From: an uncultured bacterium
GTDB taxonomy: Bacteria > Krumholzibacteriota > Krumholzibacteriia > JACNKJ01
Reading direction: 5' to 3'
Length of the DNA stretch: 64,000 bases
Assembly (NCBI GenBank): GCA_964344565.1
Contig: CAYFNT010000019.1
Location: forward strand, 6,196-70,195
The notes under the pieces are model-generated. The model had not been told where the DNA came from, searched no databases, and saw only the letters and a program-made list of their open reading frames with translations. Shown here one piece after another: positions 20,442-62,690 of this stretch (its first letter is position 1; each line of letters opens with the position of its first letter). The position numbers and the translations under genes were made by a program.

Positions 20442-20483
20442 GCAGGGCCTCCTTGGAGGAGGCAATTGTAGCACAAAGCGATC

Positions 20484-20518
20484 GAGAACTGAGAACTGAG
20501 AACTGAGAACCGCGAACC
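20484..20518. repeat. Heptanucleotide tandem repeat, 5 units (GAGAACT), plus a CTCAGTC doublet at 20531-20544
   Basis: gagaact x3, gagaacc, gcgaacc, lying 43-77 nt upstream of the start of the T9SS protein gene. Confidence 0.85.
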
Positions 20519-20528
20519 CTGTGGGATC

Positions 20529-21770: not shown

Positions 21771-21956
21771 GCCTAGTTTCCCCCCGCGCCGAGAACCTCA
21801 AGGATGGAAGGCGCGATTGTTGCATAGGCTTTCCGGGCTGGCAAGAAGGCAGCGAGACGGGCGCCGGAAGCCCTTGACCGGTTTTCAGAATCGCGCTTAC
21901 TATCGCGAAACGAAGGACTTAGCCCTCTGCCGCCGCCGGCCGAACGGGATGGGGAC

Positions 21957-22775
21957 ATGCCGATTTTCTTCTTTCGAAACGATGACGTGAACATCCTGGA
22001 CAGGGAACTGGTCGAGGTGACGGCCCGCTGCACCGAGCAGGGCGTTCCCATCAGCCATGCGGTGGAACCCGCCAACGTCACCGACGAGGCCGTCGCCTGG
22101 CTGAGGGAGGAGAAGGCCAAGGATCCTCGGCTCATCGAGATCACCCAGCACGGATACGACCACGAGCTGCGTGACCGTGGAGAGTTCGGCGGCGAGCGCG
22201 GCTTCGAGGACGCGCGAGACGACCTCGTCAAGGGCCGCGACATCCTCCTCGACAAGTTCGACGGCGATTTCCTCTCGGCCCTCAATTTCCCCTTCGGCAT
22301 CTACAACCAGAACGCCATGCGGGCCGCCGACGCGACGGGCTTCCGCATCATCTGCGCGCACTTCAACGCGCGGAAGTCGCGGCGGGCCATGTACACGGTG
22401 GGGCGCGCGCTGCGAATGGGGCAGATCCTCGGCAAGCACGTGTCGCATCACCTCGACTTCTATCCCAAGACGGGCATGTTCTCGGTGGACGTGTCCATCA
22501 GCTTCATCGATCGCTACATCGGCCCTCACGGAAGCAACACCTGCACATTCCACTCCCTGGACGAGATCAAGCGTCGCGTGCAGATGTGGATGCCCCACAC
22601 GCCGGTGATCGGACTGCTCCTGCATCACCGCTTCCATCACCAGGCCGAGCATCTCGATCTGATCAGCCGGGCCATCGAATGGCTGAAGACCATCGACGGC
22701 GCGGAATTCCGGAACATCGAGGAAATCTACGAGCGCTTCTGTCCCGAGCCGGGCAGCGGTTTTCGCAATGGCTGA
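21957..22775 (+). CDS. Polysaccharide deacetylase-like protein (CE4-like), tentative
   Basis: FFFRNDDVN start and an HGYDHE motif, seen in deacetylase-family proteins of EPS loci. Not well resolved without a search. Confidence 0.5.
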   Translation: MPIFFFRNDDVNILDRELVEVTARCTEQGVPISHAVEPANVTDEAVAWLREEKAKDPRLIEITQHGYDHELRDRGEFGGERGFEDARDDLVKGRDILLDKFDGDFLSALNFPFGIYNQNAMRAADATGFRIICAHFNARKSRRAMYTVGRALRMGQILGKHVSHHLDFYPKTGMFSVDVSISFIDRYIGPHGSNTCTFHSLDEIKRRVQMWMPHTPVIGLLLHHRFHHQAEHLDLISRAIEWLKTIDGAEFRNIEEIYERFCPEPGSGFRNG

Positions 22776-23940
22776 TCGCGCGCAGATCGTCTGCTTCGGC
22801 GGATACGACTACTGGTACAGCAACCCCGGCAGTCCCGTGCAGCTCATGGAGGCCGCGCATCGCGCCGGCCACAAGGTGCTCTGGGTGAACAGCATCGGCA
22901 TGAACATGCCGCGCATGCGCCGGAGCGGGTTCTGGCGTCGCGTGGGCCTGAAGCTGCGGAGCTGGTCGCGCTGGCTCAAGGCGGCCCACCCCGACTTCCA
23001 CGTGCTGTCGCCCATCATCCTGCCCCTATTCGGAATATCGGCGCTGGAGCGCATGAACGAGCGTTGGCTGGCCTTCCAGGTGAAGCTGGCCTATCGCATA
23101 CTCGGACTGAAGCAGCCCATGGTGATGGTCTGCCTGCCCTCCTTCGCCGAGGTGGCCACCTCGCTGCCCAACGACGGGCTCATCTACTACCTCACCGACA
23201 AGTTCGAATCCTATCGCGATCTGAAGGCGCGCGATTCCATGATGGCGCGTGACCACCTGCTCAAGGAAAGGAGCGACCTCTTGCTCTGCTCCTCCCGAAA
23301 GATCCAGGAGGATCTCGCGCAGTTCGACGGCAAGGTGAAGTACTTCCCCCACGCCGTGGATTCGTCGCGCTACGACGAGGCGCTGGCTTCCGGCGCCGAG
23401 GAACCCGCGGATCTGGTGGCCATACCCCATCCGCGCATCGGTTACTTCGGATCCCTGACCAACGCGAACAACCTGGACCTCATCGAGTACTGCGCCACCG
23501 AGGATACGAAGCTGCAGTTCGTGCTCATCGGCCGGGTGATGGGGGATTATTCGCAGGTGGAGAAGTTGCCCAACGTGCATCTGCTCGGCATGAAGGACTA
23601 CGAGGAGATTCCGCTCTACGGAAAGCACTTCGACGCGGGCATCATGACCTGGCGGCTCACCGAGTGGATCCGCTACTGCAGTCCCATCAAGACCAAGGAG
23701 TACCTGGCCCTCGGCCTGCCCGTGGTGTCGGTGCCCATCGCCGAGCACGACAAGGAGTTCAACGGATTCGTGGAAACGGCCGAGGACGGACCGCAGTTTC
23801 TGGCGGCCATCCAGAGAGCCTTGGCCGGCGATAGCGAAGAGAAGCGCGCCGCCCGTCGCGATCGGGTGAAGGGCGAGAGCTGGGATCGCAGTTTCGGCGA
23901 GATGATGAGCATGCTCGGGGAGCGTCGACGTGGCCATTGA
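22768..23940 (+). CDS. Glycosyltransferase family 4 (GT-B)
   Basis: KTKEYLALGLPVVS C-terminal GT1/GT4 motif. Overlaps its neighbours by a few nt, suggesting an operon. Confidence 0.75.
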   Translation: MADRAQIVCFGGYDYWYSNPGSPVQLMEAAHRAGHKVLWVNSIGMNMPRMRRSGFWRRVGLKLRSWSRWLKAAHPDFHVLSPIILPLFGISALERMNERWLAFQVKLAYRILGLKQPMVMVCLPSFAEVATSLPNDGLIYYLTDKFESYRDLKARDSMMARDHLLKERSDLLLCSSRKIQEDLAQFDGKVKYFPHAVDSSRYDEALASGAEEPADLVAIPHPRIGYFGSLTNANNLDLIEYCATEDTKLQFVLIGRVMGDYSQVEKLPNVHLLGMKDYEEIPLYGKHFDAGIMTWRLTEWIRYCSPIKTKEYLALGLPVVSVPIAEHDKEFNGFVETAEDGPQFLAAIQRALAGDSEEKRAARRDRVKGESWDRSFGEMMSMLGERRRGH

Positions 23941-25285
23941 GATTCCGCGCATCCTGAAACGCCCCGCCATGCGCCTGGTGGACTTCGCGCGCAAGACCGA
24001 CTCGCTCAAGCTGCTGCCCGAACTCATGGAGACCCAGTGGTGGAGCCTCGCCAGGCTCGAGGAGCTGCAGGCTCGGCGCATGTCCATGCTCGGACGCTTC
24101 GTACGCGCCGAGGTGCCCTACTGGCGCGAGGCCTTCGCGAAGGCCGGCATCGCGGAGACCGAGGATCTGACTCCAGAGAGCATCGCCCGCCTGCCCCTTC
24201 TGTCCAAGCACATGATCCGCGAGGCCGGCGACGCCCTCAGGTCCGCGAGCTTCGACAAGTGGCAGCCCCGACACAAGAACACCTCGGGTTCCACCGGCGT
24301 GCCATTGGACTACTACATCGACCGCCCGGCCCACAGCTGGCAGTGGGCGCACATGTGGCGGGGATGGGCCCAGACCGGCTATGTGCCCGGCGATCTCTAC
24401 GCATCGATCAGCGGCGGTTCGCTGGTGCCCGAGAAGGCGGCCATCAAGCAGTCGGCCTACATGGCGCTTTCCAGCGGCCTGCACTTCCCGACCTACCACA
24501 TGAACGACGAGATCATGGAGCGCTACGCCGTGCGGCTGGTGAGGAGCCCGGTGAAGTTCGTCTACGGGTATCCGTCGAGTCTGGAGATCTTCTCGGAGTA
24601 CATCACGGCCAGCCCGCGGGGGAAGATACCCATGCAGGCCGTGTTCACCACCAGCGAAGGGCTTTCGCCCAAGGCCCGTGCGGCCATCGAGGCGGCATTC
24701 GATTGCGAGGTCTTCGACACCTACGGTTGCAACGATGGCGGAATCTTCAGTTTCGAGTGCGAGCGGCACGAGGGCATGCACATCGGCATGGAGACCTGCT
24801 TCGTGGAGATCGTCGACGAGAAGGGCCGGCGCGTGCCCGACGGCGAGCCCGGCGAAGTCATCGCCACGAATCTGGTGATCAGGGCGATGCCGCTTCTGCG
24901 CTTCCGCACGGGGGACATCGCGATCCTCACCCGCGACAAGTGCGAGTGCGGGCGCGGATTGATCCGCGTGCAGGAACTGTCGGGGCGCGAGCGGGACGTC
25001 ATCCGCACCCCCGACGGGCGCAAGATCCACGGCGCCTTCTTCACGCATTTCGAGGCGCTTCACCACGCCGACTGGATCAACCGCTTCCAGATCCATCAGC
25101 CCGACCTGAACACCTTCATCCTGAGGGTGCAGCTCCGCCGCGAGCCCACGGAAGAGGACCGCCAGTCGGTCCTTCGCGACCTGCGTACCGCCTTGGGCGA
25201 CATGGACTTCCGCATCGAGGTCGCCGACGAGATGATGCTCACCCGCACCGGCAAGTTCAGGATCATCGTTTCCGACCTGAGCTGA
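23930..25285 (+). CDS. Phenylacetate-CoA ligase-like adenylate-forming enzyme (PaaK/CapK/F390 synthetase family)
   Basis: TSGSTGVP P-loop and a YGCNDGG motif, about 450 aa. This family recurs in capsule/EPS loci. GTG start. Confidence 0.75.
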   Translation: MAIEIPRILKRPAMRLVDFARKTDSLKLLPELMETQWWSLARLEELQARRMSMLGRFVRAEVPYWREAFAKAGIAETEDLTPESIARLPLLSKHMIREAGDALRSASFDKWQPRHKNTSGSTGVPLDYYIDRPAHSWQWAHMWRGWAQTGYVPGDLYASISGGSLVPEKAAIKQSAYMALSSGLHFPTYHMNDEIMERYAVRLVRSPVKFVYGYPSSLEIFSEYITASPRGKIPMQAVFTTSEGLSPKARAAIEAAFDCEVFDTYGCNDGGIFSFECERHEGMHIGMETCFVEIVDEKGRRVPDGEPGEVIATNLVIRAMPLLRFRTGDIAILTRDKCECGRGLIRVQELSGRERDVIRTPDGRKIHGAFFTHFEALHHADWINRFQIHQPDLNTFILRVQLRREPTEEDRQSVLRDLRTALGDMDFRIEVADEMMLTRTGKFRIIVSDLS

Positions 25286-25380
25286 GCGGATCCCCCGATT
25301 CCACTCTCCATCGCCGAAAGTAAATCGCGAGGCTCGTTCACCGAGTCCGTGCTAAAATGTCTGTGGATGGGAAAAGGGGG

Positions 25381-26829
25381 ATGATGATGACGTTGAGACT
25401 GTCCTTGCTCGCCATCGTAGCGCTCGTGATTTGCTTCTCCGGAACTCGCGCGGAAATCATCCACGTTCCAGGCACCTGGGACACCATCGCCGAAGCTCTC
25501 GCCGACGCCGTGGCCGGCGACGAGATCGTCATCGCCTGCGGTACCTACTACGAGAGGTCGCTGCAGATGAAGGACGGCGTCACGATCCGAAGCAGCACGG
25601 GCGATCCTTCCTGTGTGACCATCGACGCGGAGCAGGTTTCGGAAGTCTTCCTCGCGGACACTATCGGCGACACATCGGTGCTCGAGGGTCTGACCATTTC
25701 GGGAGGCTATGCGGCCGACGGGGCTGGCATCCATATCTCGGATGCGTCTCCCACGATCAGGGACTGTGTTTTCATCGACAACGATGCCGGTTGGGGCGGC
25801 GCCATGGCGGTCTATTATTCCTCCTTTCCCGAGATCACCGACTGCGTTTTCGACAGCAACGAGAGCTGGTTCGACGGTGGTGCCGTTCTTTGCATCGATG
25901 GGGCGCATCCCGTGTTCACGGATTGCGTCTTCGAATCCAACTACTCCTCCAGCGATGGCGGAGCTTTGAGTGCGAACAACTGCAGCGTCACGCTCTCGAG
26001 CTGCACCTTCGACGACAATGTGGCCGATGATCATGGGGGCGCGGTCTCGGTCTGGAACGACAGCAACGGCACGGTCACCGATTGCGATTTCAACGGGAAC
26101 GAGGCCGGCAAAGGCGGCGGTGGGTTGATCTGGAGCTTGTGCGTGAGCGGCCTGCTCGATGATTGCCGATTCTACGACAACACGGCGGACTACGGGGGTG
26201 GGCTCTACTGCTTCGTTGCCTCGCCCTCCGTGATCGGCTGCGAGTTTTCTTCGAACAATGCCGTTCCCGGCACTTGGGGGGATGGCGGAGGTTTCTACTG
26301 CGAGACCTTCGTGTCCTCGACCTTCGAGAATTGCACGTTCTTCGAGAACTCAGCGGTAGCGGGAGGCGGCGCCTACATCGATATCGACTGCGATCCCGAG
26401 TTCATCAACTGCACCTTCTACAGGAACACGGCGTCGGCCATCGGCGGCGGATTCTGCACTTGGGATACGGGCCATCCCATGCTCACCGGCTGCATCATCG
26501 CCTCCAGCCTCTCGGGCGGCTCGTTCTATTGCGGGAACGAAACGGTCGGGGCGACGCTGAACTGCTGCAATGTTTTCGGCAACGCAGGCGGCGATTGGAT
26601 CGGCTGCATCGCCAGCCAGCTGGGCGAGGACAATTTCTCGGCCGACCCGCTTTTCTGCCTCACGCCACCCTTCAGCATGTTCCCTCAGACGGGGTCGCCC
26701 TGTTTGCCTGGAAATCACCCCAATGGCGAAGACTGCAGATTGATCGGTGCCCTGGGCGAGGACGCAAACTGCGACGGGCAGCCCGTCCGCAGCGAAACGA
26801 CCTGGAGCAGCCTGAAGACGATGTACTGA
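25381..26829 (+). CDS. Secreted right-handed parallel beta-helix (PbH1-repeat) protein, paralog 1, with the C-terminal TWSSLKTMY tail
   Basis: Signal peptide MMMTLRLSLLAIVALVICFSGTRA. Many CxFxxNxAxxGGA(L/V) repeats and a conserved Cys-rich region SPCLPGNHPNGEDCRLIGALGEDANCDGQP. Ends in TTWSSLKTMY. Confidence 0.75.
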   Translation: MMMTLRLSLLAIVALVICFSGTRAEIIHVPGTWDTIAEALADAVAGDEIVIACGTYYERSLQMKDGVTIRSSTGDPSCVTIDAEQVSEVFLADTIGDTSVLEGLTISGGYAADGAGIHISDASPTIRDCVFIDNDAGWGGAMAVYYSSFPEITDCVFDSNESWFDGGAVLCIDGAHPVFTDCVFESNYSSSDGGALSANNCSVTLSSCTFDDNVADDHGGAVSVWNDSNGTVTDCDFNGNEAGKGGGGLIWSLCVSGLLDDCRFYDNTADYGGGLYCFVASPSVIGCEFSSNNAVPGTWGDGGGFYCETFVSSTFENCTFFENSAVAGGGAYIDIDCDPEFINCTFYRNTASAIGGGFCTWDTGHPMLTGCIIASSLSGGSFYCGNETVGATLNCCNVFGNAGGDWIGCIASQLGEDNFSADPLFCLTPPFSMFPQTGSPCLPGNHPNGEDCRLIGALGEDANCDGQPVRSETTWSSLKTMY

Positions 26830-26908
26830 TGATTGCTTGATCCTATTCCAGCCTGGGTCTAGTGTCTGATCCACCTCGTTGTGAAGACTCGCAATCCGGA
26901 GGATCAGG

Positions 26909-28267
26909 ATGAAGAGAATCGCCCTGCTCGCAGCAGGCTCCATCGCGCTCTCATTTCACCCCCTTCGCGCCGAGATCATCTCGGTTCCCGGCGACCATCC
27001 CACCATCGCGGAGGCCCTGACGGCCGCCGTCTACGGCGACGAGATCGTCATCGCTGCCGGCACCTATCCGGAGGGCGGCCTCTCGCTGAAAACGGGCGTC
27101 ATCATCCGCGGCGCGACGGGCAACTACACCCACGTGATCGTCGACGGCGAAGACGCCCAAACGGTCTTCTTCGCCGAGGGCGTCGACGGCTCCGCGGAAC
27201 TGCGAGATCTCACGGTGACCGGCGGGTCCGGAGCCAACGGCGGCGGACTGCGCTGCTGGGTCGCATCGCCGACCATCGCCAACTGTCGATTCCAGGGGAA
27301 CGCCGCCGACAACGGGGGCGCCATGGCCATCCAGCTGGGGTCCTCTCCGTCGATCACGAATTGCCGCTTCGAGAGCAATCAGGCCACATGCTGCGAGGGC
27401 GGGGCGCTCTATATCGAGAACAACAGCTCGGTCCAGATCTCCGGCTGCGACTTCGAGGGGAACATCGGCCGCAACGGAGGCGGTATCCACGTGCAGACCA
27501 CAGACCTCACCCTCGTGGATTGCCTCTTCGAAGTGAACACGGCGACCTTCAATGGGGGCGGCGTCAACGCCGGCACGGGCAGCAGCTGCGTTCTCATCGA
27601 CTGCGTGTTCCAAGAGAACGGGGCCGGCGTCGGCGGCGGGGCCGTGGCGAGGGCCGTGGCGACCCTGGGCGATATCACCGACTGCTTCTTCGAGGGAAAC
27701 ACGGCGGACTACGGCGGTGCGCTCTTCTGCCGGAACGTCGTGTTCAACGTGACCGGCTGCCAGTTCCTGGGGAACATCGCCGCGCCGGGCTACGACGGCT
27801 ATGGGGGCGCGGTCTTCTGCGAGTCCAATGCCGATCCCTTATTCGAGAACTGCACCTTCTACGCCAACTCGGCGGTGGAAGGAGGCGCGCTCTACGCGGA
27901 ATCCAACTGCAGCCCCGGATTCACGAACTGCATCATCGCCTTCGGCGCTGGAGGGGGAGCGGTGGCCTGCGAGAGCGGCCTGCGGACGATACTGCTGGAC
28001 TGCTGCGACCTCTTCGGCAACGTCGGTGGCGACTGGACCGGCTGCATCGCCGGACAAGACGGCGGCACGAACTTCTCGGCCGATCCGCTGTTCTGCCCGA
28101 CGCCGCCGTCCAGCCTGTGGCTGCAGACCGGGTCGCCCTGCCTGCCGGGGAATCATCCCAATGCGGAAGACTGCGGACTCATCGGCGCACTGGGCGAGGA
28201 CGCCGACTGCGACGGGCAGCCTGTCAGCGCCGTGGAGACCTGGAGCACCTTGAAGAGGATGTACTGA
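26909..28267 (+). CDS. Secreted right-handed parallel beta-helix protein, paralog 2, with the C-terminal TWSTLKRMY tail
   Basis: GGAGG RBS and signal peptide MKRIALLAAGSIALSFHPLRA. Repeats and C-terminal Cys-rich region like paralog 1. Ends in ETWSTLKRMY. Confidence 0.75.
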   Translation: MKRIALLAAGSIALSFHPLRAEIISVPGDHPTIAEALTAAVYGDEIVIAAGTYPEGGLSLKTGVIIRGATGNYTHVIVDGEDAQTVFFAEGVDGSAELRDLTVTGGSGANGGGLRCWVASPTIANCRFQGNAADNGGAMAIQLGSSPSITNCRFESNQATCCEGGALYIENNSSVQISGCDFEGNIGRNGGGIHVQTTDLTLVDCLFEVNTATFNGGGVNAGTGSSCVLIDCVFQENGAGVGGGAVARAVATLGDITDCFFEGNTADYGGALFCRNVVFNVTGCQFLGNIAAPGYDGYGGAVFCESNADPLFENCTFYANSAVEGGALYAESNCSPGFTNCIIAFGAGGGAVACESGLRTILLDCCDLFGNVGGDWTGCIAGQDGGTNFSADPLFCPTPPSSLWLQTGSPCLPGNHPNAEDCGLIGALGEDADCDGQPVSAVETWSTLKRMY

Positions 28268-34510: not shown

Positions 34511-34969
34511 ATGATAACTCGGATTCTCGATGTTCTCGTTTCCCGACTCAACGAACACCTTCAATCCGAGTTGGGATTGCCTTCGAATCTTGTCGGCCTC
34601 GCACCGCCGCCGAAAGACGGTTTGATGGAAAAGTCGGATCGCGTTGATCTGACATTTCTGAGCATCGAACCGGATCCGCATTCAAGGAACTCGGGGAGTT
34701 CGCCTGCTGCCTTGAATCTGGATGTGCGAGTGGCTTTCAGTTTTCACGGCGAATCCTACGGCGCGGCCCTCGATCTGGTGTATGCGGTTCTGGATTTCTT
34801 CCATCGGAACGTCGTTTTCGAAATCGATGCGCAGGAGACTTCCAACGGTCTGAGGGTGCAGGTCGAACAGCAGAGCCCATCGACCGAGGAAGTCAACTAT
34901 CCATACAGGGTCGTTTACCCAACCCCGGCTCCGCGACTCGACTACCGCATTCGAATCCAGGAGATGTAA
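34511..34969 (+). CDS. DUF4255-like protein (Afp16/Pvc16 N-terminal-domain-like component of contractile injection systems), tentative
   Basis: 152 aa and a GAGGAGG RBS. The start MITRILDVLVSRLNEHL resembles DUF4255 family starts. Sits immediately upstream of the sheath gene. Confidence 0.5.
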   Translation: MITRILDVLVSRLNEHLQSELGLPSNLVGLAPPPKDGLMEKSDRVDLTFLSIEPDPHSRNSGSSPAALNLDVRVAFSFHGESYGAALDLVYAVLDFFHRNVVFEIDAQETSNGLRVQVEQQSPSTEEVNYPYRVVYPTPAPRLDYRIRIQEM

Positions 34970-34975
34970 TCGAAG

Positions 34976-36445
34976 ATGGCACCCAAGAAGAGAACTGCTA
35001 GATCGCGTCGCCTGAAGACTCCCGGCGTTTATGTGGAGGAAGTTTCGTTCTCGGTGCCATCGGTGGCCGAAGTGGAAACCGCCGTTCCGGCGATCATGGG
35101 ATACGTGGAGAGGGCCGACGTACTTTTCGAACCCGTAGCAGTCAAGTCCATGGTGGAGTTCCGGGAGTTGTTCGGTGGGGAGGCGCCGCTTCGCATCGAC
35201 GAGGTGCGGGTGGATCAGAACCATGCCTTCGAGTCGGCGCGCATTCGCGCAGGATCTCATCTGCACGACAGCATCCGTCTCTTCTACGAAAATGGCGGCG
35301 GGGGCTGCTACGTGGTTCCGGTGGGGACCTACTCGGATCGCCCCGAACTGGAGCACTTCGAGCGCGGCCTCGCCCGTCTTGCGAAGGAGGATCGCGTCAC
35401 ACTGCTCCTCTTTCCCGACGCCGTGCTTCTGAGCAAGGATCTCTACGCGGTGCAGAAACTCGCCCTGAAGCAATGCGGCAAGCTCCAGGATCGTTTCGCG
35501 ATCCTCGATCTCCATGATATCCGGGAGATGCCCAGTCCTCTGGTCTCGGGTTTCCGATCGGAAATCGGGATCGAAAACCTGAAGTATGGAGCCGCCTACC
35601 TTCCTCACCTCGAGTACCCGTCCGGACGATCCCTACGCTTCCGTGATTTGAAGGGAAAGCTGCGGCGAGGGGAAGAGTCGATGAGGATTGGCGATCTGAT
35701 CGAGGATCGCGAAGAGTTCCGCGAGCTTGCTCAGAAACTCGAAGGGCTCATCGATGAGTATCCAGACGGCTCACCCACGGCTGAGGAGAGCGAACTGGAG
35801 ACGGAACTGAGGGCCGTGTCGGCCAGGTTCGGGGCCCTGCTCGGCGAAATCGAGATGCTTCCGTCATTCGTTCCTCCGAGCGGAGCGGTGGCGGGCCTGT
35901 ACGCCTTGACGGACACCACGCAGGGCGTCTGGAAGGCCCCGGCGAATGTGGCCCTGGGAGGCATCACCGGAGTGGCATGTTCCATCGACAGTCACGATCA
36001 GGATAGCCTGAACGTGGATCCCGCATCCGGAAAGTCCATCAATGCGATCCGTCCCTTTATCGGAAAAGGTTGTCTGGTCTGGGGGGCGAGAACCCTGGCT
36101 GGAAACGACAACGAGTGGCGTTACGTGCCGGTTCGGCGCTTTGTCATCATGCTGGAGAAGTCCCTGAAGAAGTCGATCCAGTGGGCGGTCTTCGAGCCTA
36201 ACGATGCGAAGCTCTGGGTCAAGGTGAAGGGCATGATCGAGAACTTTCTCACCGTGAAATGGCGCGAGGGGGCCCTGATGGGCAGCATGCCGGAATATGC
36301 ATACTACGTCAAAGTCGGCCTGGGGCAGACCATGACCGAACTGGACATTCAAGAGGGCCGGCTGAACATCGAAGTGGGCTTCGCGCCGTTGAAGCCCGCC
36401 GAGTTCATCGTTCTGAAGTTCTCCCACAAGATGTTAGAGAGCTAG
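34976..36445 (+). CDS. Contractile phage-tail/eCIS sheath protein
   Basis: N-terminal KTPGVYVEEV. The C-terminal sheath domain shows GVWKAPANVALGGITGV, GCLVWGARTL, NEWRYVPVRRFVIMLEKSLKKSIQWAVFEPND and FLTVKWREGALMG, all hallmark Phage_sheath motifs. Confidence 0.85.
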   Translation: MAPKKRTARSRRLKTPGVYVEEVSFSVPSVAEVETAVPAIMGYVERADVLFEPVAVKSMVEFRELFGGEAPLRIDEVRVDQNHAFESARIRAGSHLHDSIRLFYENGGGGCYVVPVGTYSDRPELEHFERGLARLAKEDRVTLLLFPDAVLLSKDLYAVQKLALKQCGKLQDRFAILDLHDIREMPSPLVSGFRSEIGIENLKYGAAYLPHLEYPSGRSLRFRDLKGKLRRGEESMRIGDLIEDREEFRELAQKLEGLIDEYPDGSPTAEESELETELRAVSARFGALLGEIEMLPSFVPPSGAVAGLYALTDTTQGVWKAPANVALGGITGVACSIDSHDQDSLNVDPASGKSINAIRPFIGKGCLVWGARTLAGNDNEWRYVPVRRFVIMLEKSLKKSIQWAVFEPNDAKLWVKVKGMIENFLTVKWREGALMGSMPEYAYYVKVGLGQTMTELDIQEGRLNIEVGFAPLKPAEFIVLKFSHKMLES

Positions 36446-36453
36446 GGGGCGCC

Positions 36454-36882
36454 ATGGATCGCATGCCATTGCCGAAATTCCGTTTCCTGCTCAAGTGGGA
36501 GGAGTGTGCGATTTCCTTCAGCGAGGTGACGGGCCTCGACAGCGAAGTCGAAGCGGTCGAGTATCGGGGAGGCGGGGATCCCGAGTTTTCCCCGATCACG
36601 ATGCCTGGATTGCAGGAATTCTCGAACCTTACCCTGAAACGCGGATACGGTGAGGGTGGACCGCTCATAGACTGGATCAAGGAGATCCGAAGCAACGTGA
36701 TCAAGCGATATGCCATGACCATCCAGCTGCTGGACGAGGATTCCCGGCCCGCCATGACCTGGCAACTCACGAACGCCTTTCCGGTGAAGATCGAGGCCTC
36801 CGATTTGAACGCATCGGAAGGGGAATTCGCCATCGAAACGCTGGAGCTCGCTCACGAAGGAATCAGGATCAACACTCCCTGA
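36454..36882 (+). CDS. Contractile tail tube protein (T4 gp19/eCIS Cis1-like)
   Basis: KFRFLLKWEECAISFSEVTGLDSEVEAVEYRGGG...NLTLKRGY...IETLELAHEGIRIN matches the tail-tube family pattern. Start trimmed to MDRMPLP with an AGGGGG RBS. Confidence 0.8.
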   Translation: MDRMPLPKFRFLLKWEECAISFSEVTGLDSEVEAVEYRGGGDPEFSPITMPGLQEFSNLTLKRGYGEGGPLIDWIKEIRSNVIKRYAMTIQLLDEDSRPAMTWQLTNAFPVKIEASDLNASEGEFAIETLELAHEGIRINTP

Positions 36883-43921: not shown

Positions 43922-45409
43922 CTACTTGATGAGCACGAGCCGGATGATCTCCGATCCCTCCCCGGCCCGGATGCGGCAGAAGTAGACGCCGCTGCTCCGG
44001 TCCCGGCCGAGCTCGTCGCGGCCGTTCCAGTCGAGAGTGATTCTCCCCGGGCCGGCATGCTCATCCAGAAGAGTCGCGACCCTGCGTCCGGAGATATCGA
44101 AGATCTCCACGACCGCATGGGCGGGTTCTTCGAGACCGAATTCGATACGCGTGCTCGGATTGAAGGGGTTCGGGGCGGCGCTTGCGGCGAATTCCTCGCG
44201 GTTCATCGATCCGCAGGCTCCCCAGGCTCCCATTAGGCCGCAATCGTTGTTGTCGGGCAGGCAGGGGGAGTCGGGTTGGAGGAAGGGACGATAGTCGAAG
44301 GTCGTGCAGATGAGCGGATCCTCGCAGATATTGCCGTCCACGCCGAGGAGCTCGAGGATCACCGGCGTCCAATCTCCGGCTGGGTTTCCGAAGAAGTTCG
44401 AACAGGAGATCAGCGGCGGATCGTCGAGCCAATACTGGTAGATGGCCTGTCCCTGGATCGATCCAGCGATCAGACACTTGTCGATCTCGACATAGGCCTC
44501 TTCGGTGATGCCGATGTTGCCGCCTCCGGATACGACATTGCCGAAGAAACTGCAGCTCTCGACGCGGTGCACTCCCAGATCCAGCAGAACCGTGCTGCCG
44601 CTGTATCCGTCGTTTGCGACGAACGTGCATCCCAGGAGAGTTCCCCGGCACTTGTTCAGACTGATCGCGTGTCCGCCAGCCCAACCGTAGTTGTCGTAGA
44701 AGATGCAGTCCTCGATCAGGAGTCTGCCGGAATCGTGGGCGGCCACGCCGCCTGCGTTGATCGTCCGGTTTCTCTCGAAGAGCGAAGCGCCTATCCGACC
44801 TCGACTGCCGCTCGTCACCGCCACGGTTCCCCAGCAGCCCTGTTGGTGGTGGCCGTTTTCGATGAATCGACAGTTCTGAATGTCGACATGCGAGTCGTTG
44901 ACGAAGCAGATGGCAGATCCGCCGGTACCCGCCCCGGCGATGTTGTTCATGAAGAGGGTATCCTCGATGCGGGGACGCGATTCGCTGAAGAAGAGGCCGC
45001 CGCCGGGGCTTTCGCTGCGGTTGTCGAAGATGACGCAGTTTCGAATCGTCAGTGAGGATTCAGTGAATCGGCCGGCGCCTCCGTGGAACTCGTCCGCGTG
45101 CGTGAAGGTGATTCCCTCGATGAGGGTGCTTCCGTCCAGGCCGACGCCTCGAATGCAGTAGCCTTTATCCATGGCGTCGACGGTGACGCATTCGGGATCG
45201 CCGGAACCGCTCCGCAGCGTGACGCCGCTTTTCATCTCGAGGTGGAATTCCTCGTAGATGCCGCAGGCCACCTGGACGGTGTCCCCCCGCTCGGCCAGTT
45301 CGATGCCGGCCTGGATGCTCGGCGCATCCGTTGGAACGTGGATGATCAGGGAGTTCGCCGGAACGGCGCAGAGCATCAGGATCGATAAACGAGTCAGGGT
45401 CTTTCGCAT
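43922..45409 (-). CDS. Secreted right-handed beta-helix protein, paralog 3, carrying a T9SS-type C-terminal sorting domain
   Basis: Signal peptide MRKTLTRLSILMLCAVPANS. PbH1-like repeats and a Cys-rich region homologous to the 25381 and 26909 proteins (NFFGNPAGDW...DSPCLPDNNDCGLMGAWG). C-terminus EIFDISGRRVATLLDEHAGPGRITLDWNGRD...GVYFCRIRAGEGSEIIRLVLIK is a T9SS CTD. Confidence 0.75.
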   Translation of the reverse strand: MRKTLTRLSILMLCAVPANSLIIHVPTDAPSIQAGIELAERGDTVQVACGIYEEFHLEMKSGVTLRSGSGDPECVTVDAMDKGYCIRGVGLDGSTLIEGITFTHADEFHGGAGRFTESSLTIRNCVIFDNRSESPGGGLFFSESRPRIEDTLFMNNIAGAGTGGSAICFVNDSHVDIQNCRFIENGHHQQGCWGTVAVTSGSRGRIGASLFERNRTINAGGVAAHDSGRLLIEDCIFYDNYGWAGGHAISLNKCRGTLLGCTFVANDGYSGSTVLLDLGVHRVESCSFFGNVVSGGGNIGITEEAYVEIDKCLIAGSIQGQAIYQYWLDDPPLISCSNFFGNPAGDWTPVILELLGVDGNICEDPLICTTFDYRPFLQPDSPCLPDNNDCGLMGAWGACGSMNREEFAASAAPNPFNPSTRIEFGLEEPAHAVVEIFDISGRRVATLLDEHAGPGRITLDWNGRDELGRDRSSGVYFCRIRAGEGSEIIRLVLIK

Positions 45410-45494
45410 TTCAACCGCCCTTTCCCACATCAGTCTGATTATGTAGCTATTCTAGCAGCTTCCTCCCTTCGGGTAAACCGGCCCAGTATTCAAT

Positions 45495-54579: not shown

Positions 54580-54608
54580 CCGAGGGGAGCGCTCCCCTCG
54601 GATTTTTC
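54580..54608 (+). terminator. Palindromic rho-independent terminator CCGAGGGGAGCGCTCCCCTCGG plus ATTTTTC
   Basis: Fully self-complementary 22-mer followed by a T tract on the plus strand. Overlaps the stop of the convergent moaB-like gene. Confidence 0.7.
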
Positions 54609-55128
54609 ATGCCCTCCGGCGCGCTTCCCTGAGAATGTGACCGATTTCGGTAAGCACGAGTTTCTCCATGGCCAGCTTGACGCCGCCGGGGGATCCGGGC
54701 ATGGCCACGATGGCCTGCTCTCCCCGGATGCCCGCCAGCGCGCCGCTGAGCATGGCCGCCGCGCCGATCTCCTCGTAGCTGAGCATGCGGAAGAGTTCGC
54801 CGAAGCCGGGCACGACCCGGTCGCAGAGTTCCTCGACCACCTCCGAGGTGCGGTCCCGCAGGCCCACACCCGTGCCGCCGCTGAGCAGCACTCCGTCGCA
54901 GCCCGCGCGATCCAGGCCGTCCAGGATGGCCTCCTCGATGGCCCGGGGCTCGTCGGGAACGATGCGCCGATCCAGGCCCTGGTGCCCCGCTTCCTCGAGC
55001 ATCGCCGCCATGAGGGCGCCGGAGCGGTCGTCCTCCAGGGTTCGGGTGTCGCTCACCGTGATCAGCACCAGGCGCAGCTCGCCCGGCGCTTCCCGGCGAT
55101 GGCTCACATGGCTGGGGGTTTCGTTCAT
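54607..55128 (-). CDS. Molybdenum cofactor biosynthesis protein MoaB/MogA family
   Basis: LRLVLITVSDTRT and LLSGGTGVGLRDRT motifs. 173 aa. AAAGGAGGAG RBS. The long upstream part of the track ORF was rejected. Confidence 0.8.
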   Translation of the reverse strand: MNETPSHVSHRREAPGELRLVLITVSDTRTLEDDRSGALMAAMLEEAGHQGLDRRIVPDEPRAIEEAILDGLDRAGCDGVLLSGGTGVGLRDRTSEVVEELCDRVVPGFGELFRMLSYEEIGAAAMLSGALAGIRGEQAIVAMPGSPGGVKLAMEKLVLTEIGHILREARRRA

Positions 55129-55185
55129 GGCTCCTCCTTTCGGAATCCATAGCACAAGGAGCCGCGCTGCGCTATCCTCCGGGCC

Positions 55186-56265
55186 ATGGACAACTCCGGC
55201 ACCGACAGCCTCCGCGCGAAACTCCTCGACTGGTTCGACCGACATCGGCGCCCCATGCCCTGGCGCGCCGATCCCAGCCCCTACAAGGTTTGGATCTCCG
55301 AGATCATGCTGCAGCAGACGCAGGTGAGCACGGTGATTCCCTACTTCGAAAGATTCGTCGAACGCTTTCCCTCGCCGAGGCATCTCGCCGAATCGGACGA
55401 GGAAGAGGTGCTCGCTCACTGGAGCGGCCTGGGCTACTACCGTCGCGCGCGCAATCTGCGCAGGGCGGCGCAGGTTCTGCTCGACGATCACGATGGACAG
55501 CTCCCCCGCGACCTGAAGGCCCTGCAGAAGCTGCCGGGAGTGGGGCGCTACACGGCGGGCGCGATCGCGTCCATCGCCTTCGGCATTCCCGCCCCCGCGG
55601 TGGACGGCAACCAGATCCGCGTGCTCACGAGGCTCGAGGCCCTCGATGGCGACCCCTCGCGCAATCCCCTCAAGGCCACCCTCTGGCGAAGGGCCGGGGA
55701 GTTGGTCGAAGGCGAACGTCCCGGCGATCTGAATCAGGCCCTCATGGAGATGGGCGCCCGCGTCTGCAAGCCGACTTCGCCGAACTGCGGGGAGTGCCCG
55801 GCGGCCGAGTCCTGCCTGGCTTTCCGGGACGGCCGGGCCGAGGAGTTTCCCCGCAAGGATCCGGCCGAGGCGCCGCGTCCCGTGCGAGTGGAAGTTGGGG
55901 TCTTTCAGCGTGGAGAGCGTGTGCTGCTCAGCCGGGGCCAGCGCCCCTTCCTGGGCGATCTCTGGAACCTGCCCTACCGCGTGCGCGACGGCGGGGGCTT
56001 CCGCGCCGAGGATTGGCGACAGCTGGGCCTGGACGCGCCCGAACTGCGCCACCTGGGCGAACATCGCATGAGCATCACGCGCTACCGCATCAGCCAGGAG
56101 ACGGTCACCGGCGATGTGGAATTGCTGGTGGGCGAGAATTTGCCCGAGTACCGATGGTTCTCCCGCCACGAACTCGGCGACCTGGGTCTGCCCGCCTTTT
56201 CCCGCAAGCTCCTTGACCGCTACTTCGAAGGCGAAGACGCGAAAAAGCCCCGCTCCAAATCCTGA
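55186..56265 (+). CDS. mutY: A/G-specific adenine DNA glycosylase
   Basis: PWR..DPYKVWISEIMLQQTQV, LPGVGRYTAG and the Cys cluster CKPTSPNCGECP, plus a C-terminal NUDIX-like domain. Confidence 0.9.
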   Translation: MDNSGTDSLRAKLLDWFDRHRRPMPWRADPSPYKVWISEIMLQQTQVSTVIPYFERFVERFPSPRHLAESDEEEVLAHWSGLGYYRRARNLRRAAQVLLDDHDGQLPRDLKALQKLPGVGRYTAGAIASIAFGIPAPAVDGNQIRVLTRLEALDGDPSRNPLKATLWRRAGELVEGERPGDLNQALMEMGARVCKPTSPNCGECPAAESCLAFRDGRAEEFPRKDPAEAPRPVRVEVGVFQRGERVLLSRGQRPFLGDLWNLPYRVRDGGGFRAEDWRQLGLDAPELRHLGEHRMSITRYRISQETVTGDVELLVGENLPEYRWFSRHELGDLGLPAFSRKLLDRYFEGEDAKKPRSKS

Positions 56266-56281
56266 GCGGGGCCCATTCCGA

Positions 56282-56866
56282 CTAGTACAATGTCTTCAGA
56301 TGCTCCCAGGTCGTGCTCTCCGTGCTCGTCCATCCGCTGAGCAGGATGATGTTGCAGGGCTCGTAGCCGCAGGCGAAGGCCATGAGGTCCGGGGCCGGCT
56401 CCTGGCAGACGTCGTGGTCGATGTCCCAGGCCTGGAAGGTGTGCAGGAAGATGCGCTCCTCCAGCAGGAATCCGTCGCCCGCCGCATCGGCGTAGAGAAG
56501 GCAGTGGAAGCCCGGATTGCCGCAGCAATCGATGCAGAGGGCCCAGTCCGCCCAGTTCTCGCCGAATAGCGGATGATCCAGCCAGGGATCCGGCCAGTAG
56601 GTGTCATAGATGCTCGTGTCGGTCCCGTACATGTGGAAGTAGGTCTCGTAGCAGAACCAGCAGGTTCCGCCGAGGCCGAAGTGGAGTTCGGTGATCCATT
56701 CGGATCCCGAATCGGGAACGAGCACCATGCGCACCGTGGCTTCGGACTCCTCGGTGAACTCGTTGATGGTGTAGGGATCGTCGTCGGTGTCGATGTCCAG
56801 CAGGATCTGGTAGGCGCCCGCGGGAATCGAGACCAAGAGTAGCAGAATCGCGATAGTCAGTTTCAT
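56282..56866 (-). CDS. Small secreted Cys-rich protein, tandem paralog 1, with the C-terminal TWEHLKTLY tail
   Basis: Signal peptide MKLTIAILLLLVSIPAGA, then GGTCWFC, CIDCCGNPGFHC, AFACG and PCNII motifs. Confidence 0.6.
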   Translation of the reverse strand: MKLTIAILLLLVSIPAGAYQILLDIDTDDDPYTINEFTEESEATVRMVLVPDSGSEWITELHFGLGGTCWFCYETYFHMYGTDTSIYDTYWPDPWLDHPLFGENWADWALCIDCCGNPGFHCLLYADAAGDGFLLEERIFLHTFQAWDIDHDVCQEPAPDLMAFACGYEPCNIILLSGWTSTESTTWEHLKTLY

Positions 56867-56885
56867 GCCGACTCCTTTCCGCGTG

Positions 56886-57485
56886 TCAGTAAAGTGCCTT
56901 GACCAGTTCCCAACTGGTCTCCATGGATGCCTGTCCCGGTACGGATGAAAGGGGCGAGCTCAGGTTGATCACGTTGCAGGGCCCCCCGCAGGCGAAGGCC
57001 ATGAGGTCGGGGGGCGGTTCCTGGCAGATGTCATGGTCGATGTCCCAGGCCATGAAGTCGCGAAGGAAGATCCGCTCCTCCAGATAGAATCCTCCGCCCA
57101 CGGCCTCGGCCGAGAAGAAGATGTGGTAGCCCGGATTTCCGCAGCAGTCGATGCAGGTGGCGCCGCCCATTTCCGCATTCTCGAATAGAGGATGCTCGAG
57201 CCATGGCTCGATGAAGGCGAAGAGCTCGCAGTCGGTGCCGTACATGTGGAAGTAGTCCTCGAAACAGAACCAACAGGTTCCTCCCAGACCGAAGTGGATG
57301 ATGGATATCCATTCTCCATCTCCCTCCGGAGCCAGGATGAGGCGAACGAGGGCCTCTGCTTCGGGGGTGGATTCGTTGAGGGTGTAGGGATCGTCGTCCA
57401 GATCGATGTCGAGCAAGATCTGAAAAGCAGCGACCGGGACGGCGGTGAAGATCAGGCATATGAGCAAGACGAACAGTTTTTTCAT
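56886..57485 (-). CDS. Small secreted Cys-rich protein, tandem paralog 2, with the C-terminal SWELVKALY tail
   Basis: Signal peptide MKKLFVLLICLIFTAVPVAA. Cys pattern as paralog 1 (GGTCWFC, CIDCCGNPGYH, AFACGGPCNVI). Confidence 0.6.
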   Translation of the reverse strand: MKKLFVLLICLIFTAVPVAAFQILLDIDLDDDPYTLNESTPEAEALVRLILAPEGDGEWISIIHFGLGGTCWFCFEDYFHMYGTDCELFAFIEPWLEHPLFENAEMGGATCIDCCGNPGYHIFFSAEAVGGGFYLEERIFLRDFMAWDIDHDICQEPPPDLMAFACGGPCNVINLSSPLSSVPGQASMETSWELVKALY

Positions 57486-57858
57486 GCTTGCCTCCTGATG
57501 CCGCTATGGGGCGGTCGCGGGTCTGTCGCGTGGATCCCGGCCGGGCGACCCGAGTGGGGATGCGCTCCCCGGCCGACCGGAATCAGTGGGGAGCCCCGCT
57601 GAGATCCCCGCGGGCATGCCGATGCGCTCTTCCCGATGCGTGGGCATCGAAGGTCGTCCTGGATTCACCTTTTGGAAGGATTCGGATCGACGCAGGCGGC
57701 GCGTGCCGCCTCGAGAGGCAGGCTGTCGGCAGGGGTGTCCTCATCACGGGTCCTCTTCCCAATTTCAAAGGAAAGCTTCCCTTTGACCTTCTAATTATAT
57801 ACTTTTCAGGCTTCCCTGACTAGCAGTACGACCGTTCGAGCGTCGACGAGGTGCCCTC

Positions 57859-60934: not shown

Positions 60935-61489
60935 TCAGGCTTCGAACTCTCTCTTCAGCAGTCCGTAAAGGTAGTGGTCGCGCTCCCTGCCAGCCGGATC
61001 CACCAGCATGGACTTCACGCGGCCCTCCCGCCGCATGCCCAGCTTCTCGGCCACGCGCCGGCTGGCCAGGTTCTTCACGTCGCAGTTGAGCCAGATGCGA
61101 CCTGCGCCGAGATCCTCGAAGGCGTAGCGCGCGATGCGACGGCAGGCTTCGGTGCAGAGTCCTCGGCCTTGCCTGTCGGAGCGGATCCAGTAGCCGATCT
61201 CGTAGCCCATCACGGGATCGCCCAGGCGCATGAGCCCCATCATTCCCAGGAACCTGTCGTCCTTCTTGTCGAACACGCCGAGGTGCAACTCGCGATCCCG
61301 CTCGCGGCCCTCTCGTGTGAAACGCACGAAGGCCCGGGCCATCTCCAGGTCGTAGTTCGCTTCGGCCCAGAACAGGTAGGGCTGCAGCTCGTGGGAGCTG
61401 GCCTGTACGGCCTGTGTCAGGGCACGCGCATCCTGCATGCGTAGGGAGCGAAGCAGCAGGCGCCGCGACTCAATCTTGACCGGCTTCAT
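60935..61489 (-). CDS. GNAT family N-acetyltransferase (RimJ/RimL-like)
   Basis: RQGRGLCTEACRRIARYAF acetyl-CoA binding motif. 184 aa. Confidence 0.8.
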   Translation of the reverse strand: MKPVKIESRRLLLRSLRMQDARALTQAVQASSHELQPYLFWAEANYDLEMARAFVRFTREGRERDRELHLGVFDKKDDRFLGMMGLMRLGDPVMGYEIGYWIRSDRQGRGLCTEACRRIARYAFEDLGAGRIWLNCDVKNLASRRVAEKLGMRREGRVKSMLVDPAGRERDHYLYGLLKREFEA

Positions 61490-62690
61490 GGGGCTCCTTC
61501 GGCGGCGCGAGTGACAGTCCCGTGAGGGCCCAGAAGAGCAGGATCACTTCGGCGTCGCCGAAGTACCATTCGAAAAGCCCCGCGACCATGAAGGCCGTCC
61601 ACACGGAGATGCCGGCCAGGATCCAGGCAAGCTGTTCGGGCGGCGCGCGTTCGCCGAGCCTTCGAAGTTCGCGAAGACGCCGCCACTGCAGCCAGGGGAT
61701 CGATCCCAGGAAGACAAGGGCCAGAGCCAGACCGGGAATGCCCCAGAGCACGGCGAACATCACCGGATTGCTGTGGAAGTGTCCGTAGACGATCACGTGT
61801 TCGCGGTCTTCTGCGGGCGTGTAGATCTCGTAGTAGCTACGCAGGTCGCGATCGCCAAGGCCCGTGATGGGATGGTCCTTCAGGATGCGCCAGCCCGTCT
61901 TCCACATGTAGAGTCGCTGCCAGTTGCTGGCGTACTCCTTGCCGGGGCGGAAGACCGAGGTGAATCGTTCGCGATATCGTGGCGGCGCCAGGAGCAGCGC
62001 GACGATGAGAAGCACCGGCAGGATCAAGGCGAGTCGGGGGCGTTTCAGGAGCATCAACACGAAGAGTCCTGCCAGGAATCCCATCCAGCAGGAGCGACAC
62101 TGGATGAGGATGAGCACCCAGAAGCCGAGCCCGAAGGCGATGGATAGAAACAAGCCCCGCGGTCCACGGGGGAAACTCATCAGGAAGGCGAAGAGGGTCA
62201 GGGTGCCCATCATCAGGATGGCGCCGGCGGTCATGGGATTGGTGGTGAGGGGCAGCTTGCCCATGCGTTTGAAGTTCTCGGCGATCTCGACAACTTCGAA
62301 GGCTTGCAGCAGTCCGTAGACCGCGGCTCCTGCGAGCCCGAGGGCGAGGGCCGGAAGGAAGAGGCGACGCCATCGCGAGTCCAGGATCGTTTCGGCGAAG
62401 AGCCAGACGGCTGGAACGAGCCACCAGCGTTTCAGGTGGTGAAGGCTTTCCACGGGATCGGTGGCCGCGGGAAGGGTGACGAGGATCCATCCCAGCCAGA
62501 GCAGCAGCGGCGCTTCGAGACCGGTGAGGCCGGGCTTGCGCCCTCCGAAGAGCAGGGCCAGTCGCAGCAGGATCGCCGTGCCCAGGGCGGTCTGGCTGAT
62601 GGCGACGGAAAAGGGCGCGGCCAGCATCACGACGACGAGCAGTCCTCCGAGGATGCCGTCCGTGATCCCGCCGCGCCCTTTCGAAGTCAT
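61470..62690 (-). CDS. O-antigen ligase/Wzy-like polytopic membrane protein
   Basis: At least 10 predicted TM helices with a periplasmic-loop region (Wzy_C-like) after TM8. Confidence 0.65.
   Translation of the reverse strand: MTSKGRGGITDGILGGLLVVVMLAAPFSVAISQTALGTAILLRLALLFGGRKPGLTGLEAPLLLWLGWILVTLPAATDPVESLHHLKRWWLVPAVWLFAETILDSRWRRLFLPALALGLAGAAVYGLLQAFEVVEIAENFKRMGKLPLTTNPMTAGAILMMGTLTLFAFLMSFPRGPRGLFLSIAFGLGFWVLILIQCRSCWMGFLAGLFVLMLLKRPRLALILPVLLIVALLLAPPRYRERFTSVFRPGKEYASNWQRLYMWKTGWRILKDHPITGLGDRDLRSYYEIYTPAEDREHVIVYGHFHSNPVMFAVLWGIPGLALALVFLGSIPWLQWRRLRELRRLGERAPPEQLAWILAGISVWTAFMVAGLFEWYFGDAEVILLFWALTGLSLAPPKEPHEAGQD

Follow-up and report, generated by a model that had tools for sequence, protein, structure and literature searches.

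C-terminal sorting signals are the main means of predicting the surface proteome of uncultured bacteria, and LPXTG, PEP-CTERM and the C-terminal domain (CTD) of type IX secretion systems (T9SS) each led to the discovery of secretion or anchoring machinery. The signals LPXTG, PEP-CTERM, GlyGly-CTERM and MYXO-CTERM, which belong to sortase, exosortase, rhombosortase and myxosortase, respectively, are short, lie near the C-terminus and occur several times per genome on unrelated passengers with signal peptides, choice-of-anchor domains among them. All are tripartite, with a transmembrane segment and an Arg cluster. The T9SS type A CTD (TIGR04183 / PF18962, FlgD_ig-like) is located at the C-terminus of diverse Sec-exported passengers and folds into a beta-sandwich that measures 43 to about 100 amino acids (aa) and contains motifs B, D, and E. 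Documented 'short' CTDs have three strands and 43-55 aa, and a minimal signal of 22 residues is sufficient in Hbp35 (PMC11969387). The subject of this report is a C-terminal tail of 9-10 residues detected on four proteins encoded in 64,000 nucleotides (nt) of DNA from an uncultured bacterium of the Krumholzibacteriota (contig CAYFNT010000019.1, positions 6,196 to 70,195), a stretch referred to below as the window. With the first group of signals the tail shares its shortness, position, multiplicity and type of carrier, choice-of-anchor domains included, but it has neither transmembrane segment nor Arg cluster. With the T9SS CTD it shares the C-terminal position on diverse passengers predicted to be exported by Sec, the lineages and even the window, but it lacks motifs B, D, and E, is helix-prone, matches no CTD model and measures only about 20 residues when an upstream [TV]-P motif is included.

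Two of the four proteins are specified by adjacent genes on the reverse strand. Gene 1 (56886-57485) encodes a precursor of 199 aa, in which a signal peptide is predicted to be followed by an acidic beta-sandwich domain and, after a linker, by the tail SWELVKALY-COOH (56889-56915). Its paralog, gene 2 (56282-56866), encodes 194 aa and ends with TWEHLKTLY-COOH (56285-56311). The products are 58% identical over their full length (BLASTP, E = 6e-76), and gene annotations of further public assemblies of this organism contain identical products. Signal peptides, assessed throughout by a heuristic test for n-, h- and c-regions, are predicted for both: residues 1-21 of gene 1 (57423-57485, MKKLFVLLICLIFTAVPVAA, cut before FQ) and 1-19 of gene 2 (56810-56866, MKLTIAILLLLVSIPAGA, cut before YQ). 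Both N-termini start basic, continue in a hydrophobic core free of charges and reach a small-x-small site, PVAA|FQ in gene 1 and PAGA|YQ in gene 2. An earlier sequence-only reading of the window had described tandem secreted paralogs of these lengths, and its coordinates proved to be exact.

The same reading had noticed that the tail is common to the pair and to beta-helix proteins, and the comparison bears this out. Two such proteins, encoded on the forward strand 28-31 kb from the pair, have the ending W..[LV]K..Y in common with it. The first (25357-26829, 490 aa) has a signal peptide, matches Pfam Beta_helix and Chlam_PMP and ends with CDGQPVRSETTWSSLKTMY; its paralog (26909-28267, 452 aa), which also has a Pfam match, ends with CDGQPVSAVETWSTLKRMY. 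Thus, 4 of about 50 genes in the window carry the tail, while about 1.5e-4 (0.00015) open reading frames (ORFs) ending in a sequence of the type W-x-x-[LV]-K-x-L-Y are expected from amino-acid composition. In the family to which the pair belongs, W, K, and Y of the tail are at least 90% conserved across the wide family, above nearly all of the domain body. In the close family W192, K196, and Y199 are invariant, and K occupies its position in 24 of 25 wide-family members. A cause at the nucleotide level for the conserved 3' end was ruled out, since the two pair tails encode the same residues with different codons.

In the lineage of the window, the tail has the form W-x-x-[ILV]-K-x-x-Y; elsewhere it reads [ST]-W-G-x-[ILV]-K-x-x-Y-R, and distant members of the pair's family end with T-W-G-x-[IL]-K-x-x-Y-R. 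All 11 tails of the window clade (the window and loci L005-L007) are without Gly after Trp and without the final Arg although their passengers belong to unrelated families. Both forms of the tail are present in a deeper relative, L008. The joint absence of Gly and Arg from unrelated proteins of one genome suggests a common reader that changed too.

To see how far the tail extends, metagenome DNA was scanned for sequences encoding [ST]-W-G-x-[ILV]-K-x-x-Y-R directly before a stop codon, which revealed at least 120 loci. In the 120 loci listed, 135 ORFs end in the motif, in whose consensus W, G, K, Y, and R are preset by the search pattern. Outside this selection, WGx[LIVM]KxxYR occurred 13 times; twelve of these occurrences are exactly terminal, one is followed by a single extra residue, and none is internal. 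A signal-peptide-like N-terminus was detected by the heuristic in 88 of 103 complete tail carriers versus 77 of 261 other ORFs of the same loci. The carriers are otherwise unrelated, with a mean column identity of 6% outside the tail. They span 19 different Pfam families, among them LTD (7 carriers), NosD/Beta_helix, phosphoesterase, CBM_4_9, fn3, NHL and others, and most carriers match none. NCBIfam matches include the choice-of-anchor domains V (4 carriers), P, and J, a class of passengers whose definition is that they occur with differing C-terminal anchors. Further NCBIfam matches are to families in which MYXO-CTERM or PEP-CTERM usually serves as the anchor. Homologs of the C-terminal module of the beta-helix proteins, one of them from a metagenome-assembled genome (MAG) of Candidatus Eisenbacteria, mostly share the tail ending; two, P0043 and P0052, have Arg in place of the tail Lys. 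No Pfam or NCBIfam model covering the tail was found. A full-text literature search in which subscription journals are poorly covered, made with several spellings of the motif and with sorting signals of these phyla as subjects, returned no description.

Conservation extends upstream of the motif itself. In the 135 tails, C is found at -18 to -20, [AP] at -17, [TV] at -16 (85%), P at -15 (62%) and [ATV] at -14; nearer the end, [ST][TS] at -11/-10 precedes W-G-x-[VIL]-K-[AS]-[LI]-Y-R. The equivalent of the upstream Cys and [AP]-[TV]-P-[ATV], which end five residues before Trp (L014-L133), is C-D-G-Q-P-V in the beta-helix proteins of the window. This upstream element could be a site of cleavage or modification.

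Among the metagenomic loci, a two-gene cassette recurs in soil and sediment samples (L014, L028, L034, L056, L068, L075). Its upstream gene specifies an exported protein with a length of about 220-280 aa and, in many cases, the ending ...C-P or ...C-A-P, and the gene immediately downstream a single tail-bearing family of about 15 members with the N-terminus MKKTLLL...LNLSWNxC; neither protein had a match in Pfam. A scan of the whole IMG/VR viral collection yielded six sites with the tail pattern (L137-L142), all located at ends of ORFs in the form ...WGxVKxxYR. The tail-bearing proteins of these viral-classed contigs are either prophage cargo or encoded by misclassified cellular DNA.

In two protein families, the tail and the T9SS CTD replace each other. 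Protein P0016 contains the domain of the pair without the tail, and a T9SS type A sorting domain is found at the same junction (TIGR04183, 27.2 bits with a cut-off of 23; FlgD_ig, 41.9 bits). The second case lies within the window: a third beta-helix paralog of 502 aa (43922-45430, reverse strand; Pfam Beta_helix) can be aligned with the tailed beta-helix proteins as far as ...DCGLMGAWG, from where it continues into a C-terminal domain of FlgD_ig/T9SS type (FlgD_ig, 25.5 bits, just below the cut-off of 27 bits). Another protein of the window, an exported protein of 597 aa (18683-20476, reverse strand), has a FlgD_ig/T9SS-type C-terminal domain above the cut-off, and both kinds of C-terminal element are therefore used in this genome. 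Mixed clusters of tail-bearing and CTD-bearing homologs were present in 17 of the 120 tail loci listed. The sequence-only reading had assumed a tail-dependent sorting route, a proposal that now receives strong comparative support from the C-terminal position of the tail, its unrelated carriers, its exchange with T9SS CTDs and its choice-of-anchor passengers.

The tail is not part of the passenger fold. In the AlphaFold2 model of gene 1 obtained with 25 diverse sequences (predicted local distance difference test score (pLDDT) 85.3, predicted template modelling score 0.76), which replaced a run with 13 close sequences (pLDDT 58.6), residues 21-174 form an all-beta sandwich, 181-186 a disordered linker and 192-198 a short terminal helix. 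The tail of gene 1 is therefore predicted as a short helix following the linker.

Small C-terminal sorting signals have been characterised by a list of eight attributes (Haft, bioRxiv 10.1101/2023.06.07.544157), against which the tail was compared. It is located near the C-terminus (attribute 1) and occurs several times per genome (2), with four tails in the 64-kb window and three each in L007 (18.7 kb) and L008 (20.6 kb). At least three residues are near-invariant (3), namely W, K, and Y, which most other lineages supplement with Gly and Arg. Carriers with signal peptides (6), unrelated carriers (7) and homologs with another anchor (8) are found as well. The hydrophobic transmembrane segment (4) and the terminal 2-5 basic residues (5) are absent: only 8-9 residues including Lys follow the Trp, and there is at most one terminal Arg, none in the window. 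With six attributes present and these two missing, the tail behaves like a sorting signal, yet it is not a tripartite signal of the sortase, exosortase or myxosortase type. Cleavage by an intramembrane or membrane-bound enzyme of the sortase type is accordingly unlikely, since transmembrane segment and Arg cluster are lacking. The outer-membrane beta-signal, which is recognised by the beta-barrel assembly machinery, was also considered as a counterpart. Like the tail, it occupies the extreme C-terminus, with an aromatic residue in the final or the adjacent position, but it marks barrels, while the tail passengers are soluble beta-sandwich and beta-helix domains, and it alternates hydrophobic residues, which the W/K/Y spacing of the tail does not, most tails ending in Arg. 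The beta-signal was excluded on the basis of non-barrel passengers and wrong residue spacing.

From these comparisons it appears probable, at roughly 0.6, that the tail acts as a tag for localisation, modular in nature and read by a conserved envelope component that is possibly linked to T9SS. W, K, and Y are conserved at the level of identity across unrelated passengers and across phyla, and a protein as the reader is therefore favoured over generic lipid binding. The pair proteins would be exported by Sec, cleaved by signal peptidase I, oxidised, and folded into a mature beta-sandwich of about 175 aa, from which the flexible linker would hold the tail away. After export and folding, a conserved envelope protein would recognise the tail and direct the protein to the cell surface or keep it there. 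The tail would thus do the same job as the T9SS C-terminal domain of roughly 80 aa on homologs, and it may use the T9SS shuttle as a minimal signal.

Several observations weigh against this interpretation. The signal-peptide heuristic is crude and also scores 30% of the controls. In some carriers, including a minority of the homologs of the beta-helix module, 1-7 residues follow the motif, so that a free carboxylate is not a universal determinant. Some passengers look periplasmic (cupredoxin-like, NosD-like, pyrroloquinoline quinone (PQQ)-dehydrogenase-like), which raises the possibility of a destination other than the cell surface. Attributes 4 and 5 of the Haft list are missing, the tail is far shorter than any documented T9SS signal, and no T9SS component genes are located in the 64-kb window. 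For the pair domain itself, the best structural matches are weak (E of at least 7e-3, query-normalised TM-score of at most 0.38, identity 5-12%). Finally, the support for the tail is comparative, and its cognate machinery was not found among the neighbours of tail genes. When 799 ORFs of the 120 tail loci listed were compared by BLAST, each against all others, the recurrent partners were T9SS-CTD proteins, one family-specific upstream gene and unrelated housekeeping genes (Peptidase_S11, TauE, an ATP-binding cassette (ABC) ATPase and Lon), but no recurrent non-tail neighbour that could be a sorting enzyme was tied to tails generally. The absence of such an enzyme beside tail genes is expected for a one-to-many system.

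Of the competing explanations, the one that fares best would make the tail itself a minimal type IX secretion signal that binds a PorV-like shuttle or the SprA translocon, and tail proteins T9SS cargo. It is a more specific version of the tag interpretation and is rated as rather unlikely. According to published abstracts, T9SS occurs in lineages of the Fibrobacterota-Chlorobiota-Bacteroidota (FCB) type, and all labelled tail carriers belong to such lineages. Tail and T9SS-type CTD take each other's place at the same junction in two families, and proteins with FlgD_ig-type CTDs are present in tail organisms, two of them in the window, as well as in the 17 loci mentioned above. The 43-55 aa CTDs and the 22-residue segment of Hbp35 (PMC11969387) set a precedent for shortened signals. 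On the other hand, neither motif B (PxP/Y) nor D (GxY) nor E is recognisable in the tail, and the TIGR04183 and PF18962 models had no match to either pair protein at E up to 10. A helix-prone peptide of ten residues would also be unable to form the PorV-binding beta-sheet, and if tail and CTD were equivalent, the retention of both elements in one genome would be unexplained.

A recognised tag, as favoured here, requires a reader. Alternatively, the tail could be a self-sufficient amphipathic helix that tethers proteins peripherally to a membrane leaflet or to lipopolysaccharide without any dedicated machinery, for which the C-terminal helices of PBP5/6 and the membrane-targeting sequences of MinD and FtsA are analogues. 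The predicted helix at 192-198 would suit such a role. On a helical wheel W, [ILV], [LIM], and Y fall on one face with K and R flanking, and the hydrophobic moment of the window tails is 0.34-0.60 as a helix versus 0.03-0.19 as a strand. Tolerance of short extensions past the motif and the presence of some periplasmic-type passengers also fit. Lipid-binding helices, however, keep a pattern and not identities, whereas W, K, and Y are near-invariant across unrelated passengers; nine residues are very short for stable binding, and for the YR-type tails the moment does not favour a helix over a strand. Since replacement by a T9SS domain would also be unexplained, a helix acting on its own is improbable, more so than a minimal T9SS signal.

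The conserved lysine suggests yet another possibility, namely that it is a covalent attachment point, either to peptidoglycan via L,D-transpeptidases or to a partner via an isopeptide bond. The C-terminus of Braun's lipoprotein (Lpp), ...K-Y-R-K, is linked to peptidoglycan by L,D-transpeptidases, and its resemblance to K-x-x-Y-R provides a lead. The lysine is invariant in the close family and missing from only one of the 25 wide-family members. Besides the tail lysine, no other lysine occurs in either mature pair protein, and the same holds for the mature body of 11 of 25 family members. This scarcity can also be explained by extreme acidity and high GC content, and tail proteins generally contain 1.2% Lys compared to 1.65% in other ORFs. 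Arg replaces the lysine not only in P0043 and P0052, but also in the family fragment P0035, and no transpeptidase is tied to the tail by gene neighbourhood in the 120 loci listed. Covalent attachment through this residue is therefore rated as very improbable.

The localisation tag remains the preferred interpretation. A more specific version, in which the tail is the address label of an undescribed route of sorting or surface attachment, be it new machinery or a minimal-signal branch of T9SS, is more tentative, and somewhat less than even odds are given to it. If it is true, a substantial fraction of the exported proteome in Eisenbacteria-, Krumholzibacteria-, Gemmatimonadota-, and Fibrobacterota-like bacteria uses the tail, which would then be the first short C-terminal sorting signal of diderms needing neither a transmembrane helix nor a folded domain. 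The tail is invisible to present domain libraries and sits on adhesin-like beta-helices, carbohydrate-binding modules and phosphoesterases. As a sorting tag, it would delineate a large class of proteins, surface-located or secreted, that is so far unannotated in phyla abundant in soil and sediment. A search for the machinery could start directly from it, with tail counts set against the presence of genes in phylogenetic profiles, and a 10-residue tag for protein display in tail-bearing organisms would become available.

The family to which the pair belongs is tiny, unnamed and confined to uncultured bacteria of the FCB type. In a collection of 5.8 billion proteins it forms 11 clusters at 90% identity, and in one of 1.84 billion it has 27 representatives at 50% identity; a word-index protein search repeated with the wide alignment added at least four further members. 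The genome records containing it are MAGs labelled 'uncultured bacterium', Candidatus Krumholzibacteriia, Gemmatimonadetes or 'Fibrobacteraceae'. Scans of both pair proteins with Pfam and NCBIfam gave no match, the passenger domains of 25 family members are all without a Pfam match, and a sequence-profile search of the PDB with the family gave nothing below E = 0.2. A known domain with a C-terminal strand that could explain the motif had been sought as a counter-argument to a common tail, and there is no such relative in Pfam, NCBIfam or the PDB. Foldseek searches of PDB and BFVD yielded nothing below E = 1e-3. The best matches, the weak ones referred to above, are the generic sandwiches CBM3, cohesin, the macroglobulin receptor-binding domain and YcnI, which are all-beta and of similar size like the pair domain, but show no relationship to it at the sequence level. 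A diverged version of the domain was seen in the metagenomic protein P0030 (734 aa) as the N-terminal module, followed by FG-GAP/ASPIC repeats (CRTAC1-like) and a FlgD_ig C-terminal domain; the family domain can therefore belong to a bigger protein that is probably T9SS cargo.

Within the family alignments, the position of the cleavage site is conserved, and the mature N-terminus [YF]-x-[IV]-L-L-D-I-D is kept in all relatives. Invariant residues of the wide family are L-D-x-D-x-D-x-x-P-x-T after the cleavage site, P53, E58, G69, C71, and C154, with C74 and C114 nearly invariant. The mature proteins had been called acidic, in accordance with a calculated isoelectric point of 4.05 and 31-32 Asp and Glu versus 3-4 Lys and Arg. 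The conserved cysteine framework reported for them holds within the close clade; across the wider family, just C71, C74, C114, and C154 are kept. C111/C115 and C166/C170 are gained or lost together, in the close clade only, and minimal family members contain four cysteines in total. For these reasons, the framework most probably represents two core disulfides with lineage-specific extras and not a knot. The disulfide-knotted fold predicted from the cysteines is not supported: AlphaFold2 gives a beta-sandwich, the CxxCC and CxxxC motifs are clade-specific, and a sandwich of 175 aa with four conserved Cys does not provide the three interlocked family-wide disulfides of a cystine knot.

The gene order around the pair is Wzy_C, acetyltransferase, HAD, leuS | pair | mutY, mog, Rrf2, SpoIIE, and it is the same in the nearest relative (89% identity). 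The order of the neighbourhood is conserved across L001-L008; in L008, with proteins 44-47% identical, the core consisting of acetyltransferase, leuS | pair | mutY, mog, Rrf2, SpoIIE is retained, which indicates a stable core gene and not a mobile toxin cassette. No immunity, protease or processing, or exporter genes are adjacent to the pair. That the proteins are small, secreted, Cys-rich and duplicated had suggested disulfide-knotted toxins, bacteriocins or signalling peptides with immunity or processing functions, but a predicted 175-aa beta-sandwich, only four Cys conserved across the family, core-gene-like synteny between leuS and mutY down to about 45% identity, the missing transporter, immunity or protease gene and the lack of any matching toxin family in Pfam and NCBIfam make this the least credible of the explanations, with hardly any probability left to it. 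The housekeeping context leuS | pair | mutY | mog | Rrf2, conserved to 44-47%, in particular speaks against the toxin annotation, which is replaced by that of a tagged beta-sandwich surface module of an unnamed family. The passenger may be regarded as a small, very acidic, disulfide-stabilised binding or structural module, perhaps with a calcium site in the DxDxD loop of the invariant LDxDxDxxPxT motif, and the pair most likely represents surface-displayed modules of this kind. The two proteins are ordinary-looking cargo of their family, and the value of the finding lies in the tag.

Both genes have their own Shine-Dalgarno sequence, AGGAGG at 57491-57496 on the reverse strand for gene 1 and AAGGAG, located in the 19-nt gap between the genes, for gene 2. 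Gene 2 is followed by an intrinsic terminator (56242-56274, reverse strand) whose GC stem of 11 bp encloses a loop of 8 nt and is followed by a U-run (-28.4 kcal/mol). From this arrangement of ribosome-binding sites, short gap and terminator, the two genes are taken to form an operon, which is oriented convergently to mutY. A sigma-70-like promoter candidate, TAGTCA-17-TATAAT (57794-57822, reverse strand), was identified by consensus match alone, and the promoter type of this lineage may differ. It lies within a block invariant in four relatives and implies a leader of about 300 nt.

The spacer between leuS and the pair (57486-57858) had been described as GC-rich and 370 nt in length. The length is essentially correct (373 nt); the GC content of 63.3% equals the window average and is thus not unusual. 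Blocks of this spacer are invariant in four relatives (also L001, L006, and L007, with tail proteins 77-89% identical), namely the block containing TATAAT, a hairpin at 57765-57786 and about 50 nt immediately 5' of the ribosome-binding site. RNAalifold predicted that the two distant ends of the spacer pair with each other, among them CCUC with the GAGG that belongs to the ribosome-binding site; there is no covariation in support of these pairs, as the paired positions never vary. An Rfam search of the locus revealed no family, with a single sub-threshold microRNA match.

Downstream of the pair, the 520-aa ORF at 54607-56169 (reverse strand) is an over-extension running antisense through mutY (55186-56265, forward strand). 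Public gene calls place just a 173-aa MoCF_biosynth (mog-like) gene at its 3' end.

Genes related to polysaccharide synthesis were observed at two places in the window. Within 18683-28267, the genes of the tailed beta-helix proteins sit directly downstream of a polysaccharide-type cluster, which consists of two glycosyltransferases, one of type GT4 (20529-21770) and another at 22768-23940, and a weak match to AMP-binding (23930-25285; 28.4 bits, cut-off 29.9) and is adjoined by the FlgD_ig-CTD protein at 18683-20476. An O-antigen-ligase-like Wzy_C gene (61470-62690), syntenic in relatives, is found at a distance of 4 kb from the pair.

At 34511-36882 on the forward strand, a Pvc16_N-like gene (34511-34969) is followed by a contractile sheath gene (34976-36445) and by an ORF inside 36259-36882 that, judged by eye, resembles a tail-tube protein of the T4 gp19 type. 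Baseplate, spike and ATPase genes do not follow this ORF; the next ORFs are a regulator-type ORF resembling DUF134 (by eye) and a molybdopterin oxidoreductase (Pfam). The region may represent a minimal or remnant contractile-injection cluster.

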